A DNA stretch of 64,000 nucleotides, from the NCBI GenBank assembly GCA_965116925.1, contig OZ220744.1, positions 5,472,001 to 5,536,000 on the forward strand, read 5' to 3'. A program made the translations under genes and the position numbers. Position 1 is the first letter of the stretch. Every line of letters starts with the position of its first letter. Shown piece after piece: positions 46,772 through 58,920 of this stretch. The notes under the pieces were generated by a model. The model saw only the letters and a program-made list of their open reading frames with translations. It made no database searches and was not told the DNA's origin. Origin of the DNA: Candidatus Poribacteria bacterium. GTDB lineage: Bacteria > Poribacteria > WGA-4E > PCPOR2b.

Positions 46772-49756
46772 ATGGCAGCAGAGATACCTTTACAAAAAAT
46801 TGATGAATACCGGTGGCGTATCCCTAAAAGCTATATGCGCGGGATGCGGGTTGATGGAATTATCTACGCAAATGAGAAACTACTTGAACAAGCCAAAAGC
46901 GAGGAAGCGTTGCAGCAGGTCGCTAATGTGGCACATCTGCCGGGGATTATCAAGCATTCGCTGGCAATGCCTGACCTACATTGGGGCTACGGCTTCGTGA
47001 TTGGCGGAGTAGCGGCGACTGATCCGGAAGCAGATGGCGTTGTGTCCCCTGGTGGGATTGGGTACGATTTGAACTGTTTGACGGCTGACGCACAGATCCT
47101 GCATCAACACGGTTACACGATACCAATCGGAGAGATGGGTTCAAATTGGGAAACCGCTATGCTACGTTGTCAGGATTTTCAAAATAGCGTTGAAACCCAA
47201 ACCTCTGTGCAGCATTATCTGAAACTTCGTCCAACCCAGCCAGTATACCGTCTGAAGACTGAAGGTGGTGATACCATCAAGGCGACAGCCGATCATCCCT
47301 TCTGGACACCAAAGGGGATGGTTGAACTGCAATCGCTCAAGATTGGTGAAAAGGTCGCGCTATCACCATTTCAAGGGGTGCCTTATAAAGAGCCATCGGA
47401 TAAGATTATCGTTGACCAAGCACAGATCGAAAACTTGCTCAGTCAACTCGGTGATAGCCAATCCGGCAATCGACGGGGGCAGGTTATCAAGCATCTCAAG
47501 CAGCGCGATCTGTTGCCGCTGAGATACGACTCACCTGCGTTGCCATACCTGCTAAAAGTCTTAGGATATGTGATGGGAGATGGAAATATCTACTATGTTA
47601 ATGGTGATGGCAAAGGTCGAATTGCTTTCTACGGCAAAGCAGAAGATCTAGAGGCGATCAGAGCAGATATTTCACACCTTGGGTTTACACCATCAAAATT
47701 GCACCGCCGTGAGCGAGTCCATCAGATTACAACGAGTTACGACACATATCGATTTTCCCGCGAAGAGGTCAGCTTCAATGTGAGTAGTACTGCGTTCACG
47801 ACGCTACTTGTTGCGCTTGGCGCGCCTCACGGTAAGAAAGCCTCTCAGGACTATCGGATGCCTCAGTGGATTAAGGTTGCACCGTTGTGGCAGAAACGCT
47901 TGTTTCTCGCAACGCTATTCGGGGCTGAACTAGAATCCCCCGGCACAATGACAGGACACCCGTACACCATCTCCGCTCCTAAGATGTCAATGAGCAAAAG
48001 GGAGGGTTATGTCGACAGTGGTGTCTCTTTCTTGCGAGACATCAGTAATCTTTTAGCGGATTTCGGTGTGCAGACTAAGAAGATTGGCCAGCGAAAAGAG
48101 CAAACCAACACCGATGGATCGGCTTCCTATCGGTTACGATTAGTTATCTCAGGAACGAATGAAAACCTGATTAAACTGTGGGGACAGGTTGGGTTTGAAT
48201 ACAACGCAGAGCGTAAGGCACTCGCAAATGTTGCATTACAGTATCTCAAACTCAAACAACGATTGATTGAGGATCGAGAAAATGCTGCAGGGATTGCTGT
48301 TGCAATGCACGCAGATGGGATATCGATCTCAGAAATTACCGACAAGATTGGATTTAAATATATTAACGAGCGTTTTGTCGAAAGGTCGATCTATGAAGGA
48401 CGACAGACGAAACCACGAGTCAGCCAAGCGTTTCCAACTTTTGAGGAATACGTTGAGGAAGGGACACACGACTTGGGCGAAAGTGGTATGGTTTGGGATT
48501 GCATTGAGTCAATTACCCCGCTTGAGTTTGATGATTATGTTTACGACTTTACGGTTGAACATCCGGATCACAATTTCATTGCAAACGGTTTTGTTGTATC
48601 TAACTGCGGTGTTTGTTTAATTCGGACCAATTTGGATATTCAACAGTTAGCGGGTAGAACCAAAGGGCTCGTTGCGAAGCTGTTTGAAAATGTTCCCTGT
48701 GGTGTTGGGTCAAGTGGAAAGATTCGGCTGAACCAGCAAGAAGAGAAGCAGATGGTCGAGCAGGGAGCGCGTTGGGCGGTTGAGCGCGAATACGGCTTTC
48801 TTGAAGACCTTCAATTTACGGAGGCGAACGGCTTTCTGTCCCTTGCCAATGCGGATGCAGTCAGCAAACGCGCCCTGGAGCGCGGAAAAAATCAGCTCGG
48901 CACACTCGGCTCTGGAAATCACTTTTTAGAAGTTCAAGTGGTAGATCGGATTCTGTATCGGGAAGCCGCGGAGGTGATGGGGCTGACGGAGGGACAGATT
49001 TGTGTGATGATTCATAGTGGTTCGCGCGGCTTCGGCTATCAGGTGTGCGATGAGCATGTCAAAACATGGGTCCAAGTTGCAAAGAAGTATGGGATTGATC
49101 TGCCCGACCGCCAACTTGCCTCTGCCCCGATTAATTCAAAGGAGGGGCAGGACTATATCACGGCGATGGCGTGTGGGGCGAACTATGCATGGAATAACCG
49201 CCAGTGTATCATGCACTGGGTGCGTCAAACATTCATGGATTTCTTTGAGACGGGGGTTGATGAGCTCGGCTTAGAACTGGTCTATGATGTCGCACATAAC
49301 ATCGGCAAGTTTGAGAAGCATCTCGTTGATGGGACTGAACGTGAACTGTTCGTGCATCGCAAAGGTGCGACACGAGCGTTCCCGGCGGGGCATCCTGAGA
49401 TTCCCAACAAGTATCAGAAGGTTGGACAGCCGGTTCTGATACCCGGCGATATGGGCACCGCCTCTTATGTCTTAGTCGGTAACCCGTCGGCGATGGAGCA
49501 GACGTGGGGAACAACATGCCATGGTGCAGGTAGAATGCTTTCGCGGCGGAAAGCGATGCAGGTCACGAAAGGGCGCAGCATTCAAAAAGACCTTGAGAAG
49601 CAAGGAATCTTCGTCCGTGCAGAAGGGCGACGCACACTCCACGAGGAGGTGCCTGAAGCCTACAAAGATGTGGATGAAGTTGTCAAGGTTGTCGACGCAG
49701 CGGGCCTTTCACGGCGGGTAGCGCGGTTGCGCCCGATTGGTGTAGTCAAAGGTTAG
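46772..49756 (+). CDS. rtcB: RNA ligase RtcB containing an intein
   Basis: MPDLHWGYGF, GYDLN|CG, QLGTLGSGNHFLE, HSGSRG, HRKGATRAF, PGDMG, HGAGR and AYKD motifs; 484-aa extein. Confidence 0.96.
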   Translation: MAAEIPLQKIDEYRWRIPKSYMRGMRVDGIIYANEKLLEQAKSEEALQQVANVAHLPGIIKHSLAMPDLHWGYGFVIGGVAATDPEADGVVSPGGIGYDLNCLTADAQILHQHGYTIPIGEMGSNWETAMLRCQDFQNSVETQTSVQHYLKLRPTQPVYRLKTEGGDTIKATADHPFWTPKGMVELQSLKIGEKVALSPFQGVPYKEPSDKIIVDQAQIENLLSQLGDSQSGNRRGQVIKHLKQRDLLPLRYDSPALPYLLKVLGYVMGDGNIYYVNGDGKGRIAFYGKAEDLEAIRADISHLGFTPSKLHRRERVHQITTSYDTYRFSREEVSFNVSSTAFTTLLVALGAPHGKKASQDYRMPQWIKVAPLWQKRLFLATLFGAELESPGTMTGHPYTISAPKMSMSKREGYVDSGVSFLRDISNLLADFGVQTKKIGQRKEQTNTDGSASYRLRLVISGTNENLIKLWGQVGFEYNAERKALANVALQYLKLKQRLIEDRENAAGIAVAMHADGISISEITDKIGFKYINERFVERSIYEGRQTKPRVSQAFPTFEEYVEEGTHDLGESGMVWDCIESITPLEFDDYVYDFTVEHPDHNFIANGFVVSNCGVCLIRTNLDIQQLAGRTKGLVAKLFENVPCGVGSSGKIRLNQQEEKQMVEQGARWAVEREYGFLEDLQFTEANGFLSLANADAVSKRALERGKNQLGTLGSGNHFLEVQVVDRILYREAAEVMGLTEGQICVMIHSGSRGFGYQVCDEHVKTWVQVAKKYGIDLPDRQLASAPINSKEGQDYITAMACGANYAWNNRQCIMHWVRQTFMDFFETGVDELGLELVYDVAHNIGKFEKHLVDGTERELFVHRKGATRAFPAGHPEIPNKYQKVGQPVLIPGDMGTASYVLVGNPSAMEQTWGTTCHGAGRMLSRRKAMQVTKGRSIQKDLEKQGIFVRAEGRRTLHEEVPEAYKDVDEVVKVVDAAGLSRRVARLRPIGVVKG
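47075..48604 (+). mobile_element. Intein with LAGLIDADG homing endonuclease (510 aa)
   Basis: Block A CLTADAQI, block B ATADHPF, endonuclease blocks LGYVMGDG and FLATLFGAE, block F VYDFTV..PDHNFIANG, end SN followed by Cys+1. Confidence 0.95.
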
Positions 49757-50963: not shown

Positions 50964-52004
50964 TTATTCAATTTTCATCTCTTCCAAATCCCTTTCGAGA
51001 GTCCTGATTTCCGTTAGGGTCATTGAGTCAGGTTCAAGTGCGTATGCGTTTCTATATACTTCGAGTGCGGACTCTGGATCTTGTAAGAACGAGTTGTAAA
51101 TCTGTCCCATCCACAGATATGCGTCAACCTCAGTCGGGTCTAGCGTAACGATTTTCTGGTACACATCTAACGCCTCGTCATAAGCGCGTTCCTCTCCCCC
51201 GCGCCGGAGTATAGCCGCGCGGCCATAGAGTAATCCGATGAGTTCTTGTTTCGCCTCTGTGAAGTTCGGTGCGTGTGCCACGACCTCTTCAAGAATTTCA
51301 AGCCCCCTATCCTCCAAGCCGACAAGCTGCGCTTGTTCTTCGGCGGTAAGCTCTCGGTCAATGAATTGATACATCTGCTGGATATTGCGATAGGTTCGTG
51401 ACAGTTGGAGTCGGGCTTGCAGACCAATTGGCATTGGCTCAAAGGGCACATCAATTAAGTCGAGATCATTTTCGATTGCTTTCTTGTAGTGAGTCTGTGC
51501 TTCCTCAAACTGTTTCGTCCCCTGATACAGCACACCTAACTGATAGTGTGCTTCCGCATACGTTGGATCTTTGGCGATTACAGCGAGGAACTCTTGGACC
51601 GCCAGTGCCTGTTCACCTGTGTCACGCAGCAGCTTTCCGCGGAGGAGGTGGACAGCTGGATGGTCGGGATCAATCGCTGCAGCGCGATTCAGATGGATTT
51701 CTGCATCCGCTACCCAGTTGCTATGGAAATAGATCTCCGAAACCCGAAGATGGGCGTGCAGCCGCGAGGCATGGTTGACGTTGTTGGCATCTGCCTCAAT
51801 CGCCTGAATACCCTCCCAATACGCAAATAAGGCCTTGGGTAGGTCCTGCTTTGCAAAGTGTTCATCTCCCTGTTCAATGAATGTACTTGCTTGTGATGCG
51901 GGAGGTGAATTGATTTCTGCGCCACCTCTTTTTGTATTCAGGATAATCAGGACGATGAGTGCAATCAGAGCCACAGCTTCAAAGTAGAGCAACCATTTAC
52001 GCAT
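50964..52004 (-). CDS. TPR repeat protein with N-terminal membrane anchor
   Basis: Several TPR units, e.g. AEAHYQLGVLYQGTKQFEEAQTHYKKAIE. Confidence 0.85.
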   Translation of the reverse strand: MRKWLLYFEAVALIALIVLIILNTKRGGAEINSPPASQASTFIEQGDEHFAKQDLPKALFAYWEGIQAIEADANNVNHASRLHAHLRVSEIYFHSNWVADAEIHLNRAAAIDPDHPAVHLLRGKLLRDTGEQALAVQEFLAVIAKDPTYAEAHYQLGVLYQGTKQFEEAQTHYKKAIENDLDLIDVPFEPMPIGLQARLQLSRTYRNIQQMYQFIDRELTAEEQAQLVGLEDRGLEILEEVVAHAPNFTEAKQELIGLLYGRAAILRRGGEERAYDEALDVYQKIVTLDPTEVDAYLWMGQIYNSFLQDPESALEVYRNAYALEPDSMTLTEIRTLERDLEEMKIE

Positions 52005-52017
52005 CTGTAATCTCTCC

Positions 52018-53877
52018 TCAATTAATTCCCGTCAAGAGCGTTAAAAATTCTTCCGGTTCAACAAACTTTTCAAGCCTTTTGCCTGTCAACTGATTCCCTT
52101 CAGAATCAAAGAAAATGACCACCGGCAAACCAACAATGCCGTATTTTTGTTTCAGCCGTTCGACTTCATCCGAGTTTCGAGTGAAGTCCAGTTTGACGTT
52201 CACAAATTTCGATAACTTTGATTTTACCACGGGATCAGAATAGGTATGCTCTAGTTCGTTGCAAGCAGCACACCATGTAGCGTAGAAATCGAGCATAACA
52301 GGTTTCCCTTCCCTCCGTCCAGCCTCCAATCCTTGGACTTCGTCGGCTATCCAGACGAGATCACTTTCCGCTGTTGTGAGTCCGCCGACAAACATATAAA
52401 GCCCAACAACTGCCAATAGAACGCCAACCGCTTTGCGGAGTTGCACCAAACGGGGCAGGTCTTTGAACCGCTGGGAAAATTTACCGAGGGCAACCCCAGC
52501 TAGCACGAACACACCCGCAATGACAAAAAAGCCCGTAGAATTCTGAAGCAGGGAGCGTAATGGTGGAATGGCATCTTTGAGGAAATACAGTGCCACTGTG
52601 ATTATAGCGACACCGAATATGTTCTCCAAAATATACATCCAGCCCCCAGATCTTGGGAGGGCGGCGATGGCCCCTGAAAACGTACCGATCACGATAAACA
52701 ACAATCCCATACCGAGGGCATAGGTCAACAGCAGCCAGAATCCGAGGAAAACGCTCTCTGTGGTAGCCACGTAGGAAAGCACTGCACCCAACGCCGGTCC
52801 TGTACAAGGTGCGGCGATGATGCCGGCAACGGTTCCCATCGCAAAGGCACCGGCAAATCCGGCACCGCCAACAGTGTTGAGTCGATTCTGCAGGGCGTAA
52901 GGCACACGGAGCTCAAAGACACCGAGCATCGAGAGCCCGAGCGCGAACAGAATCCCGCATACAGGAACTATGACCCGTGGATCTGCCATTATCTGTCCAA
53001 AGACCGCCCCCGTTGACGCGACAGCAACGCCCAGAATTGCGTATGTTAGTGCGATGCCGAGAACATAAGTAAGGGATAAGAGAAAGGATCGCAGACGACC
53101 TACGGATTCACCCGCACCAAAGACGGAAACAGTAATCGGGATTAGTGGGTAAACGCACGGCGTGAAACTAGTCAAGATTCCGCCCACAAAAACGAAGAGG
53201 AATGCCCAAAAGTAACCTTGGGATAACGCTTGAGAAAATTTACCGCTTTCGCTTGTAGCGGGCTCAGAGGGGTTATCCGGAGGAGAACCGAGTTGCAGGT
53301 TTGCAAAGATAGTGTCGTTAATGGGTTGAATCGGTTGGTCCATTCCAACAACGTCAATCGCAACATTGAAATCGATTGTTTTCGGCAGCAAACACTGTTC
53401 ATCGTTACACGCTTGATATGTCAATTGGAAGGGAAGCGTCATCTGTCCTAACGGTGCTGAGTCTAGTAATGTCGTTTGGAACCCGATCACGGCTTCATCG
53501 TGATACACCGGGACTTTTCCGCCCAACGAAGCAATTTCGAGGACATCTGCCTTGGGATATACTACTTCGCCAAATATCAGATCGGCGTGGTCGGGCAAGG
53601 TAACTTCTGTGGGGATTAAGCCTTCCCCGGCAGGATTCGCATTTGCGTGCCAGTTAGGCGCGAACTTCATCACGACAGCCATCTGGAATGTGCTTCCGGG
53701 CTGCACCTGATTTACTGACAAGACCCCATGCGCCGTGACAATCTCAGGTGGCTTATCATTTTGCTTAGGCAGTCCAAAACGCGATAACTGCCCCCATAAG
53801 GTGGCAGGCGTTCCGATGTATAGTGCACAGATAAGGTATAGTAGAAAGTGAGGGCGAAAAACTGATTTTCTCTTCAT
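52018..53877 (-). CDS. dsbD: Thiol:disulfide interchange protein DsbD
   Basis: N-domain QACNDEQC, TM domain TPCVYP and APCTGP, C-terminal thioredoxin WCAAC. Confidence 0.92.
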   Translation of the reverse strand: MKRKSVFRPHFLLYLICALYIGTPATLWGQLSRFGLPKQNDKPPEIVTAHGVLSVNQVQPGSTFQMAVVMKFAPNWHANANPAGEGLIPTEVTLPDHADLIFGEVVYPKADVLEIASLGGKVPVYHDEAVIGFQTTLLDSAPLGQMTLPFQLTYQACNDEQCLLPKTIDFNVAIDVVGMDQPIQPINDTIFANLQLGSPPDNPSEPATSESGKFSQALSQGYFWAFLFVFVGGILTSFTPCVYPLIPITVSVFGAGESVGRLRSFLLSLTYVLGIALTYAILGVAVASTGAVFGQIMADPRVIVPVCGILFALGLSMLGVFELRVPYALQNRLNTVGGAGFAGAFAMGTVAGIIAAPCTGPALGAVLSYVATTESVFLGFWLLLTYALGMGLLFIVIGTFSGAIAALPRSGGWMYILENIFGVAIITVALYFLKDAIPPLRSLLQNSTGFFVIAGVFVLAGVALGKFSQRFKDLPRLVQLRKAVGVLLAVVGLYMFVGGLTTAESDLVWIADEVQGLEAGRREGKPVMLDFYATWCAACNELEHTYSDPVVKSKLSKFVNVKLDFTRNSDEVERLKQKYGIVGLPVVIFFDSEGNQLTGKRLEKFVEPEEFLTLLTGIN

Positions 53878-53919: not shown

Positions 53920-54360
53920 TTATTTTTGCAATTGCTGATTAATTGCTGCACTCATTTCCTTTAGCGTCTGCTTGCTCGTTAGGCGTGTCGATATATCTCG
54001 CGTTTGGCTATCGAGCAGTAGGATGAAACCCGTTCCCTGATTGGCTTTGTAGGCTTCACCCATTCCAAGTGCTGAGGCGAGCAATTCTGACTGATAGTGA
54101 GTGGTCCGGTTCGTAAAATCTAGGGTAACGAAGAGTACAGGCTTCCCATCGAACTTGTTCTGCAAATCGGTGAAGATGGTCCCCATCTTTTTGCAGGAAC
54201 CTCACCAATCTGCGTGAAACTTCACAGCAATTATCTGTGGGGCAGCAGGCTCATTGGCTGACTCCTCGCCAGACAAGCTGATAGTCGTTACAATTAAGGT
54301 GGTCGCTACCATGATGGCCAAGGCAACCAAAATCCATCGAAGTTGAACGGGGTATTTCAT
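53920..54360 (-). CDS. Exported thioredoxin-like selenoprotein (UxxC), 146 aa
   Basis: Two track ORFs share one frame and are separated only by TGA at 54202-54204, giving KFHADW-U-GSCKKM. SECIS-like hairpin directly downstream, N-terminal signal/TM segment, SD AAGGA. Confidence 0.85.
54157..54201 (-). promoter_or_regulatory. Bacterial SECIS-like hairpin
   Basis: mRNA: UGA GGUUC CUGCAAA AAGAUGG-GGA-CCAUCUU CACCGA UUUGCAG AAC; G-rich apical loop 18-19 nt after the UGA. Confidence 0.7.
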
Positions 54361-54492
54361 GATGTTTTTCCTTTCGTTTTTTGTGAGAAGAGGGTCAAAG
54401 GGTAGAAGAAAAGCAAATGAATTGCAGATTGTGGATACCTTATTCGCTAAGGGCCTCCACAACCTACGTGCGTATTACATTCGGTTTCATAC

Positions 54493-56055
54493 CTACTTCG
54501 GCTCAAGGATAGCGCAGGGTAAGATCATCTCCTCCATTGAGATGCCGCCGTGCTGGAATCCTCCGTTAAATTGGTGCTTATAGTCGTTAAACTGACTCGG
54601 ATAAACGAAGTAATAGTCCTCTTTGGCAAGGACATAATTCTTTTCGTAAGGCGTATCGGGCAGCATGTACTGCTCTGGCTGCGTAATTCTCAACCCGGCC
54701 TCTTCGTCACATATAAGTTCGCCGCCGACTTTGAACCGAAGCCCATTCGTTGCGGGTCTATCGCCTGAAACCTTCGCTGCACGTTGACACAAAATCGAAC
54801 CGTGATCCGCCGTTAAAATGACTGTAACGCCTCGATCTGCCAACAATTTGAGGATCTTATACACCCCTGAATGCTGAAACCAATTTTGCACAAATGTGCG
54901 AAACGCGGTTTCATTGGGAATGAGTTGCTTGAGCAGGGCGATCTCAGAACGTTTATGGGTCAGGTGATCAATACAGCCAACGACCACCGCTGCTAAACTG
55001 ATGCGTTTGGTATTGCTAATCCATTGGAGGTACTCCATTTCCCCGCGCACATCAAAGATTTTAAAATAGTGCGAAGCGGGTTTAAGATAGATACCGTGTC
55101 TCTCTAGTTGCAATCGCATCAGATCTTTTTCATAACGGTTGACACTGGTGTTTTCATCATCAGTTTCCACCCATAAATCGGGATAGCGTTGCGAAAACTC
55201 TAGCGGAAACAGTCCGCTAAAAATCGAGTTCCGAGAGTAATTTGTCGCTGTCGGCAAGATTGAGTAGTGATGGTGTGTCGTAATCTGAAAGTATGGGTCT
55301 AGGAGCGGCTTAATTTTTAGCCAGTGATCCAGCCGCATACAGTCCATCACCATAAAGAAGACCTGCTTGCCAACCTGTATCTCTGGAATAACATGTTTGT
55401 AAAGTAGATCTACCGATAAAACGGGGGAATCCTCACCGACCAACCAATCGGAATAGTTATCTTCAATATAGCGGGCAAATAGGGCGTTACATTCCTGTTT
55501 CTCCAGCCTATGTGTTTCACGTAAGTTATCGGCGATGTCAAGTTCATCTAGGCGCAAATCCCATTCGGCGAGCTGGGTGTAAATATCAATCCATGTTTTC
55601 CAATCGACCCCCTCCTGTTTTAGTGCGCTTCGCTTATTAAAGTCGATAACATACTCTTGAGCGGTATAATCTTCCGTAACAGCATCGTATTCTAGGAGGA
55701 ACGCCAGTTGTGAGGCAATCTGTTGTGGGCTCAACGGCTTCATTAAGAAATCATCAACGCGATGGATAATTGCCTCATTCAAAATCTTCCGTTGCTCGTT
55801 TTCGGTTACCATGACCACCGGTAAATGGGGGCATTTCCTCTTGATCGCCGAAAGCAGACAAATCCCGTCCATATCGGGCATCATATGGTTAATCAGGACC
55901 GCGTCGTAAGTTTTTTTCTTTAACTGAGATAACCCATCAACCCCCGTCAATGCAGGCGTAATCTGATAACCCTTTTGTTCCAAGAATCGGATGTGCTTTT
56001 CTAAACTGTTTATCTCATCATCAATCCACAAAATCCTCCTTGCTTGTGTTTGCAT
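54493..56055 (-). CDS. PorX-like response regulator (REC + PglZ alkaline phosphatase-superfamily domain)
   Basis: ILWIDDE receiver domain; PglZ motifs MDCMR.D.W, LPTAT.YSRNSIFSG, D.LTH, TADHG and FQHGGISMEEM. Confidence 0.88.
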   Translation of the reverse strand: MQTQARRILWIDDEINSLEKHIRFLEQKGYQITPALTGVDGLSQLKKKTYDAVLINHMMPDMDGICLLSAIKRKCPHLPVVMVTENEQRKILNEAIIHRVDDFLMKPLSPQQIASQLAFLLEYDAVTEDYTAQEYVIDFNKRSALKQEGVDWKTWIDIYTQLAEWDLRLDELDIADNLRETHRLEKQECNALFARYIEDNYSDWLVGEDSPVLSVDLLYKHVIPEIQVGKQVFFMVMDCMRLDHWLKIKPLLDPYFQITTHHHYSILPTATNYSRNSIFSGLFPLEFSQRYPDLWVETDDENTSVNRYEKDLMRLQLERHGIYLKPASHYFKIFDVRGEMEYLQWISNTKRISLAAVVVGCIDHLTHKRSEIALLKQLIPNETAFRTFVQNWFQHSGVYKILKLLADRGVTVILTADHGSILCQRAAKVSGDRPATNGLRFKVGGELICDEEAGLRITQPEQYMLPDTPYEKNYVLAKEDYYFVYPSQFNDYKHQFNGGFQHGGISMEEMILPCAILEPK

Positions 56056-58089: not shown

Positions 58090-58788
58090 TTACTCAACCC
58101 CAAAGCTATCAAATTTGACAATGGCGGGGCTGCTATCTCCGTGTTGGGATTTTCCATACACGCCCACTTTACCCGGTCTAAGCGATCGTTCGTGAAAGCG
58201 TCCGATATTCTCACCGTTGATTGAGAGCGTCACATTTTGACCGACTTGACGTGCGGAAAGCTTGATTGGGGTATCCTTTTGAAAGGTTATTTCGCGTGTG
58301 CGAATATCCGGCGCACGCATACTCCTTCCACCGATATGCCCCTCGATTCCCACGCTACATTTCTTGCCGAACGGGTCTGCACCCGCCGGACGGTATACAT
58401 AGAATAGGATTTGTGCACTTTTACCTCGGACAGCGAAAGCGATACCGACCGATTCACCGACATTTGGCGGCATCACTTCAGCGGTCACGGTGTATTCTTT
58501 CATCGCAGCACTTTCGACGGATGATAACAGGAGCGTATCCTCTTGCCCGGCTTGTAGGTGTAACATTCCCCCTTCAATTTTATGGGGTGCTTCGACTGCA
58601 AACAGAGATCCATCTGACTGATCGAAGGCGTCCATCTTGGGACCCGTGGCGGGCATCGCTTCCGCTTCGGTTGACTCAGTCATCGCGGGTTGGGCTGCTT
58701 CCGGTGTGCTAGCTGGAGGGGCACACCCAATTCCGATTGCTACAATTGCAACAGTGACCAATTGTAAGACTTGGCTCCAGTATTTCAT
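58090..58788 (-). CDS. Lipoprotein with beta-sandwich (ConA/DUF1080-like) domain
   Basis: SD GGAGG, lipobox-like IGIGC, Pro/Ala/Glu linker and a beta-rich domain ending GKVGVYG...FDSF.V. Confidence 0.6.
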   Translation of the reverse strand: MKYWSQVLQLVTVAIVAIGIGCAPPASTPEAAQPAMTESTEAEAMPATGPKMDAFDQSDGSLFAVEAPHKIEGGMLHLQAGQEDTLLLSSVESAAMKEYTVTAEVMPPNVGESVGIAFAVRGKSAQILFYVYRPAGADPFGKKCSVGIEGHIGGRSMRAPDIRTREITFQKDTPIKLSARQVGQNVTLSINGENIGRFHERSLRPGKVGVYGKSQHGDSSPAIVKFDSFGVE

Positions 58789-58809
58789 AATACCTCCTCT
58801 ATCTGTGCA

Positions 58810-58920
58810 AATATCGCTCCGCTGGGGCTTTAGCTGCTCTGCTTCACACATTGCGCTCCTCTGGAGCGCGAGCATCAGAGGAATCGACATTCTATAGACA
58901 TATCGCTCCTCTGGAGCGAA
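58810..58920. repeat. Three copies of a CGCTCC(T/G)CTGG(A/G)GC palindromic REP unit
   Basis: Copies near 58810, 58848 and 58898; a related copy lies at 17248-17268. Confidence 0.7.

Follow-up and report, generated by a model that had tools for sequence, protein, structure and literature searches.

The single in-frame TGA of a thioredoxin gene from a Poribacteria genome is very probably read as selenocysteine (Sec), and from sequence comparison this reading is given a probability of about 0.95. In the window, by which the whole 64,000-nt stretch of DNA under analysis is meant, positions 54360 to 53920 of the reverse strand form one frame of 146 codons with a lone internal TGA (54204-54202) at codon 53, in the context KFHADW-U-GSC. 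This agrees with an initial annotation, in which one frame had been seen to be split by a single TGA at the first Cys of a WCxxC motif. Standard gene calling returned the 88-aa C-terminal fragment only. Coordinates of the gene, its signals and its neighbours are given in Table 1.

Table 1. Features of the Sec thioredoxin locus (window coordinates) and further Sec codons of the genome (coordinates on G000:C1).
Feature	Position	Strand	Remarks
Sec thioredoxin gene	53920..54360	-	146 aa, thioredoxin fold, U53-G-S-C56; PF00085 35.1 bits, cut-off 23.5
In-frame UGA, putative Sec53	54202..54204	-	N-terminal (attacking) Cys position of CxxC; Cys in aligned homologues
Shine-Dalgarno-like AAGGA	54369..54373	-	8 nt 5' of ATG; recurs in orthologues
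SECIS upper hairpin	54173..54189	-	7-bp stem from 13 nt past UGA, GGA loop after 19 nt
Lower stem of two-tier hairpin	54160..54196	-	present in this genome, poorly conserved
Competing 20-bp hairpin	54162..54213	-	pairs UGA region with SECIS 3' side; predicted only
Putative export signal or single membrane anchor	54268..54360	-	hydrophobic core at about residues 10-28
G109-T110-G111	54028..54036	-	Gly in place of thioredoxin cis-proline
dsbD, complete three-domain form	52018..53877	-	sole DsbD_TM gene of genome; putative electron donor
TPR gene, hydrophobic N-terminus	50964..52004	-	accompanies dsbD rather than thioredoxin
PorX-like response regulator/PglZ gene	54493..56055	-	upstream, 132-bp gap; NF052313 554.7 bits
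Further candidate Sec TGA, G000:C1	3775202+, 996697+, 150424-, 519565-, 4704819-, 2541661-		loci among L116-L125, L005
Further candidate Sec TGA, G000:C1	6018658+, 1886420+, 671329+, 2098070+, 3628638-		loci among L116-L125, L005

Recoding at the UGA codon

All four genes of a Sec system, proposed in the initial annotation as a check, are present in the genome: selA (607 bits), selB (373 bits) and selD (369 bits) scored above curated cut-offs, selD carries an in-frame TGA of its own, and a tRNA-Sec(TCA) adjoining selB is the only tRNA with a TCA anticodon. A search of 61 related genomes gave 21 matches at E 0.001, 18 of them with a full-length copy. TGA occupies the active-site codon in 17 of these 18 orthologues, drawn from 17 independent assemblies and three genera, and TGC in the other (genome G013). 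Among the relatives listed (120 of the 237 from the protein search) were full-length proteins with Cys at the Sec position, which align across the UGA as had been anticipated, and fragments of 87-99 aa; the fragments start at a Met after the active-site motif, the form in which gene callers store the Sec protein. Sec machinery, a conserved TGA and aligned Cys homologues together bear out the proposal of a selenoprotein hidden from annotation.

The competing explanation, in which the TGA would be a genuine stop, an error of sequencing or some other recoding, and the gene a pseudogene or two short genes, is highly improbable. The 88-aa fragment does stand as a protein in databases, and the strict hairpin rule given below is satisfied by 26% of synonymous recodings (1315 of 5000), so that the peptide itself predisposes to a hairpin. 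Against a true stop are the recurrence of the same TGA in 17 independent assemblies and the pN/pS values against 16 orthologues, 0.013 for the 12 codons before the TGA and 0.031 for the 60 codons after it; purifying selection on both sides excludes a pseudogene. TGA is otherwise a normal stop here, ending 897 ORFs of at least 300 codons, and the only tRNA of TCA anticodon is tRNA-Sec. A contig of run X2, which may not be independent of this assembly, spans the TGA codon with 0 differences. Eleven other genes, mostly of known selenoprotein families, also show the same pattern.

These eleven further Sec candidates (Table 1) were collected in a motif-guided, incomplete scan of the genome. Nine match known selenoprotein-bearing families (UGSC, SelW, AhpD, PrdB/GrdB-like, DUF3179, HMA, two redoxins and thioredoxin-TPR), and the remaining two are SelD and a formate-dehydrogenase-like gene read from sequence. 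A stem of 6-8 bp with a G-G/U loop follows the codon in ten of the eleven, and export-like N-termini are found in five (thioredoxin-TPR, both redoxins, DUF3179 and HMA).

Directly after the UGA, a two-tier hairpin with a G-rich loop had been described and likened to a bacterial SECIS. The RNA folds as described (-15.7 kcal/mol; z -2.6, -1.1 and -0.3 for 50, 60 and 80 nt from the UGA, respectively), with the G-rich loop at 19 nt, but conservation is confined to the upper tier, the lower stem being broken in up to 5 of 9 distinct rows. All 7 of 7 upper-stem pairs are invariant in the 9 distinct rows, and the 14 bases involved are identical in 18 of 18 orthologues, three synonymous sites included. 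The two most distant orthologues have GUG and GGC in the loop instead of GGA (loop codon Thr/Ala/Pro). No covariation was found in the stem (9 distinct rows), and an upper stem that never varies gives no covariation signal either way. The SECIS reading is supported by this invariant 7-bp stem and by its match to the other Sec genes of the genome.

Hairpins were scored by two rules, using for comparison 64 loci of Cys homologues from other phyla (the best 80 of 164 confirmed, minus 16 Poribacteria). The loose rule, as stated in the available part of PMC13188914, asks for a hairpin at 16-37 nt from the UGA whose loop, of 3-9 nt, has G in its first two positions, and for an MFE <= -7.5. The Sec thioredoxin hairpin conforms to it, and the rule is weak alone, passing 18 of the 64 Cys loci (best 80 of 164) and 42 of 300 true stops and missing 4 of 17 TGA orthologues. 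A strict rule, framed after the candidates had been seen (stem of at least 6 pairs and a G-G/U loop at a distance of 16-27 nt), accepts 11 of the 12 Sec candidates in the genome and 17 of 17 TGA orthologues. It also accepts 14 of the 897 true TGA stops and 5 of the 489 CxxC codons, but 0 of 63 Cys homologues from other phyla (best 80 of 164). The hairpin is retained in the TGC orthologue, G013.

Once upstream sequence is included, the consensus fold becomes a competing hairpin in which the UGA is buried; it is incompatible with the SECIS and is conserved in orthologues. Its folding energy is -26.6 kcal/mol versus -15.0 and -18.3 kcal/mol for synonymous recodings, and it exceeds 991 of 1000 such recodings in stability (987 of 1000 if the codons of the stem are kept constant). 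A ribosome that has reached the UGA would melt this hairpin, and any role for it is speculation.

Predicted export, partners and role

The predicted model has a thioredoxin fold (pLDDT 92) and a helix at residues 5-29. Its best structure matches are generic thioredoxins (Z 10.9, rmsd 2.7, 88 residues aligned), and no solved relative was found beyond generic thioredoxins and PDI domains. None of 11 NCBIfam hits (E up to 1), selenoprotein models included, rose above cut-off; with 26.5 bits for the TrxA model TIGR01068 (cut-off 96.8) and the dipeptide G-S rather than G-P, the protein is not a canonical TrxA. The CcmG/DsbE, TlpA and ResA models gave no match to it and weak matches to the C-domain of DsbD. 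The GTG noted earlier at the expected cis-Pro loop is confirmed, Gly111 being aligned with the Pro of that loop in the DsbD thioredoxin (C) domain; across 264 family rows this position is Pro in 0 and Gly in 261, while His49 is kept in 223 and Thr83 in 262.

Export is predicted with hydropathy as its sole basis (2.41 over 19 residues of the N-terminus), and the leader may be cleaved or left as an anchor. Similar hydrophobic leaders occur in homologues, the N-terminal sequence has neither a lipobox Cys nor a twin-arginine, and Omp85 genes in the genome point to a diderm envelope; the signal or membrane N-terminus of the initial annotation fits these observations.

The locus was also found to be arranged as first reported, with the gene ending 42 bp before a complete dsbD (N, TM and thioredoxin domains; Cys pairs 157/162, 241/358 and 536/539) and a TPR gene 13 bp beyond. 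Downstream dsbD is present in 18 of 18 Poribacteria orthologues. On the other side, porX is a syntenic neighbour of the Sec thioredoxin gene in 17 of 18 short orthologue loci. A scan between porX and dsbD found no sigma-70 promoter or terminator of note. An inverted repeat with a pyrimidine-rich tract, missed by the terminator scan and present in most orthologues, lies 3' of porX (window 54429-54462, reverse strand) and is possibly a terminator. Two RNA libraries yielded contigs across the locus, such contigs being no proof of transcription. Elsewhere in the window, positions 46772-49756 (+) encode an RtcB RNA ligase with an intein of ~510 aa inside, and a 266-aa ORF at 58090-58890 (-), which starts with a lipoprotein-like leader and is matched by no Pfam model, stands between two FAD-oxidase genes.

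On balance, and judged from its sequence and setting, the protein is probably an exported Sec/Cys disulfide reductase of the periplasm, recharged by the adjacent DsbD. SelB would bind the GGA-loop hairpin for insertion of Sec at codon 53, and the hydrophobic N-terminus would lead the product through the Sec translocon, to be cleaved or kept as an anchor. The Sec53 selenolate would then attack a substrate disulfide or oxidised Cys, and Cys56 would resolve the adduct, giving a selenenylsulfide for re-reduction by the N-domain of DsbD (Cys157/Cys162) with electrons from cytoplasmic thioredoxin. Oxidised envelope proteins would be the most likely substrates.

DsbD is described in the available part of PMC2665069 as the upstream partner of the periplasmic thioredoxin-fold proteins DsbC and DsbG. 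The case for supply by DsbD is strengthened here by the single DsbD_TM match in the whole genome, which makes this the only DsbD/CcdA-type gene, and by Cys homologues that directly precede a full dsbD at 8 loci, all in Planctomycetota (8 of 21 of that phylum; best 80 of 164). Three points count the other way. The cis-Pro loop is implicated in contact with upstream partner and substrate and in excluding metal (PMC2665069, available part), so that its absence argues against a textbook DsbD client; dsbD is beside 8 of the 64 loci, in one phylum, versus 40 of 64 for an ECF pair (best 80 of 164); and 4 of 19 congeners lack the gene, which was also absent upstream of dsbD in 5 of 5 genomes checked.

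The initial annotation had gone further, to a relay from DsbD through the Sec thioredoxin to targets perhaps recruited by the TPR protein. Supply by DsbD is plausible from the gene arrangement, but a dedicated three-part relay is unsupported, since the TPR gene tracks dsbD (the two persist together in each of 5 genomes checked in which the thioredoxin gene is absent), has no homologue beside the 64 other-phyla loci (best 80 of 164) and encodes a protein without Cys. As five other Sec candidates have signal- or lipoprotein-like starts, DsbD probably serves several clients, among which the Sec thioredoxin is likely one accessory member. A fusion of a DUF255 protein with a C-terminal DsbD_N domain is encoded at G000:C1 644940-647300 (L127), and a DUF255 gene of this type follows the Cys homologues in L088, L089 and L098.

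A metal-binding thioredoxin fold, with Cu, Hg, another soft metal or an Fe-S cluster held in the periplasm by Sec53, Cys56 and His49 and the site kept reduced by DsbD, is quite improbable. It gains some weight from the metal-excluding role of the cis-Pro loop together with the missing Pro, it would fit the conservation of His49 and Thr83, and another candidate exported Sec protein of the genome is of the HMA type. Metal-resistance genes, however, do not recur among 136 neighbour proteins scanned, efflux genes being found at two or three loci only, and Trp-Cys/Sec-x-x-Cys is the usual oxidoreductase motif.

There is a slim chance that the protein is instead a CcmG-type reductant of cytochrome c maturation or a direct oxidant scavenger. 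Sec favours fast peroxide chemistry, and the genome has 76 ORFs with CxxCH motifs. A CcmG-like role is favoured by a 20-kb region of ccmE/F/H/A/B/C-like genes, named here by sequence reading and PF01578 hits, in which none of 23 ORFs of at least 130 aa is thioredoxin-like. The Sec thioredoxin gene lies outside this region, and such a role is opposed by three other WCxxC proteins of the genome with hydrophobic N-termini, by the lack of a DsbE, ResA or TlpA model among the 11 NCBIfam hits, by the dispensability of the gene in congeners and by the scanned homologues, beside which no ccm genes were recognised. The haem/cytochrome c maturation cluster (L150, G000:C1 5746000-5765999) lacks a ccmG-like ORF of at least 130 aa, and a transposase-like ORF lies between two of its haem genes.

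Orthologues, the Cys family and a sigma-factor module

A quick protein tree of 88 rows, for which the active-site column was masked, unites the 18 Poribacteria copies in a single clade (SH-aLRT 93) nested among the Cys homologues. In a more careful DsbD tree of 22 rows, G013 is nested within the genus clade (100/100) and the TGA-bearing G022 and G024 fall outside it, so the TGC of G013 is a reversion; selB and a selD containing TGA are both retained in G013. Of 176 genomes in the phylum, 20 yielded a member of the family, two of them a distant Cys form, and the thioredoxin gene was found in 15 of 19 congeners. Three congeners without it are at separate positions in the DsbD tree, and in G002 and G003 porX nearly abuts dsbD with the thioredoxin gene absent. 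In G015, a transposase-like ORF (L143:145-1335) lies directly upstream of dsbD at the place of the Sec gene. Three congeners (L025 of G002, L028 of G008 and L029 of G004) have a second short ORF whose last ~38 residues are homologous to the C-terminus of the Sec thioredoxin and whose start is unrelated.

The wider family comprises 915 representatives at E 1e-10, some generic PDI-like proteins being counted in; a few N-truncated database proteins may be of either the Sec or the Cys form. A TGA-motif scan of metagenome contigs for Sec forms outside Poribacteria gave 10 matches and 0 family members, and TGC or TGT stands in all 63 loci from other phyla whose motif is intact (best 80 of 164), one of the two search patterns having required Cys. 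A Cys thioredoxin of an ECF stress operon is, as judged from these sequences, the likely ancestor, and Sec was likely gained a single time in this Poribacteria family.

At 40 of the 64 other-phyla loci (best 80 of 164), in nine named phyla, genes for an ECF sigma factor and a one-helix candidate anti-sigma protein lie within ~3 kb of the Cys thioredoxin gene, the commonest partners of the family; the neighbour profiles were built from the same loci, and short contigs lower the counts. Loci with the pair include L048, L049, L051-L054, L056, L058, L059, L061, L067, L068, L071, L077-L083, L090, L091 and others. Other neighbours at the 64 loci (best 80 of 164) are a DUF255 gene at 7, a DoxX gene at 5 and dsbD at 8. 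The anti-sigma partner is weakly like DUF3379. Its predicted periplasmic domain contains Cys in all 41 domain hits, and G-x-R-Y-C is invariant in 28 aligned domains, which were chosen by that motif; the domain had no PDB sequence match and no meaningful Pfam match, and its fold matches were middling at best (Z 6.0). A two-block motif of ECF promoter type by shape, GCAATCA-N14-TCGT, precedes 12 of 19 operon-leading Cys genes and 6 of 24 without the pair nearby (~0.1 expected in each case), the pattern having been derived from the same sequences in which it was counted.

It is unlikely that the family is a dedicated regulator that sets the redox state of the anti-sigma periplasmic Cys and so resets or tunes its own operon, kept in the present genus for a secondary target after loss of the cognate pair. 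Beyond the pair, the conserved Cys and the promoter-like motif, this is favoured by G024, in which ECF sigma, anti-sigma, Sec thioredoxin, dsbD and TPR genes are all together, and by four predicted fusions of the thioredoxin to an anti-sigma-like N-terminus (E 1e-6 to 8e-6); one more predicted fusion has a DsbD_N piece (P0152, P0176, P0215, P0270 and P0189 in all). Some of the fusions, however, may be gene-calling read-throughs, and a regulated effector gene would equally adjoin an ECF pair. A search of this genome with the periplasmic domain of the anti-sigma gave no match (E up to 1), and the Sec thioredoxin gene lies here outside the ECF operon of the family, with no cognate anti-sigma and no ECF promoter; the motif was found within 200 nt of 0 of 16 Poribacteria genes, yet purifying selection is strong. 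With the anti-sigma absent, a regulatory role cannot be the whole story here. Complex prediction for a natural Cys thioredoxin domain with the neighbouring anti-sigma domain (28-row alignments) scored 0.01 against a mark of 0.32 and is no evidence either way.

A wider scenario can be drawn, doubtful as a whole, in which the family began in an undescribed envelope redox module of an ECF sigma, a one-helix anti-sigma with one conserved periplasmic Cys and a cis-Pro-less thioredoxin that resets the anti-sigma. Sec would then have arisen by a one-base change from TGC to TGA on a hairpin half encoded by the peptide, the sigma factor would have been lost, and the thioredoxin would now belong, alongside several other exported selenoproteins, to a selenium-based periplasmic reducing network with the sole DsbD of this sponge symbiont.

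Among bacterial selenoproteins, those with UxxC in a thioredoxin fold are the commonest, so that the Sec call as such is unsurprising to a specialist. An unlisted subfamily is added to the bacterial selenoproteome, and a systematic annotation error, by which orthologues are stored as 88-aa hypothetical fragments, is corrected. One gain, one reversion and several losses in close genomes provide a natural Sec-versus-Cys experiment, and the natural Sec and Cys versions are directly comparable at ~86% identity. Reduction by DsbD both of a selenenylsulfide and of a partner without cis-Pro becomes testable. The unnamed ECF/anti-sigma/thioredoxin module exposed in nine phyla, with its predicted promoter, may be studied in culturable flavobacteria.

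Comparison with known systems

Among the 119 prokaryotic selenoprotein families of a 2026 catalogue (PMC13188914) are UxxC thioredoxins and several Dsb-like Sec proteins; in its available part no entry matches the Sec thioredoxin beyond the generic PF00085, and neither periplasm nor signal peptide is mentioned in its text. In the literature covered, subscription papers lying outside it, nothing was found that joins selenocysteine, export and DsbD, nor any title on this thioredoxin family. PMC13582414, found among papers on selenoproteins and Poribacteria, has a passage on hydrogenases.

The four-letter motif U-G-S-C is shared with the UGSC family (NF041046 / PF24696). Membership in that family was rejected, there being no profile match for the Sec thioredoxin and 161.5 bits for a true member elsewhere in the genome; by this comparison the common motif is a coincidence. 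TsoB, too, connects a selenoprotein with a DsbD-like membrane domain, but does so as a fusion with UxxxxU, whereas the Sec thioredoxin is a separate UxxC protein and scores 16.5 against a cut-off of 805.

The EcfF/OsrA regulon of Bradyrhizobium, as presented in the available part of PMC3420878, includes a thioredoxin and a DsbD-core protein (Bll1026/Bll1027) that were speculated to feed a periplasmic MetSO reductase. It resembles the module of the Cys family in its ECF/anti-sigma pair with a periplasmic sensor Cys, its membrane-anchored periplasmic thioredoxin and its DsbD core. OsrA, however, is a six-helix DUF1109 protein (PMC3420878), and the anti-sigma partner of the Cys family has one helix; the pair is absent from this genome, and no Sec is reported for that system in the part of PMC3420878 available.

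With DsbC, DsbG, CcmG/DsbE, TlpA/ResA and their Sec forms, the protein has in common a thioredoxin fold, predicted here to be exported, a dithiol-type site spaced by two residues and a position beside a complete DsbD. The Sec forms listed for such periplasmic DsbD clients are a DsbG-like protein (NF041057), a PF13098 interchange protein, UGC-TlpA and a redoxin; the present protein differs from the clients in being a single small domain that has no cis-Pro and is matched by none of the models.

The nearest comparison is with the Sec-containing UxxC thioredoxin (PF00085), entered as experimentally verified in Table 1 of PMC13188914 (available part). Common to both are a thioredoxin fold, a UxxC motif with Sec (here very probable) in the attacking place and a SECIS that follows the UGA directly and in frame. 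The protein described here is set apart by a predicted export signal, the G-S dipeptide, Gly in place of cis-Pro, its link to dsbD, an extra helix in the model (residues 85-97 and 101-106) and its low TrxA score.
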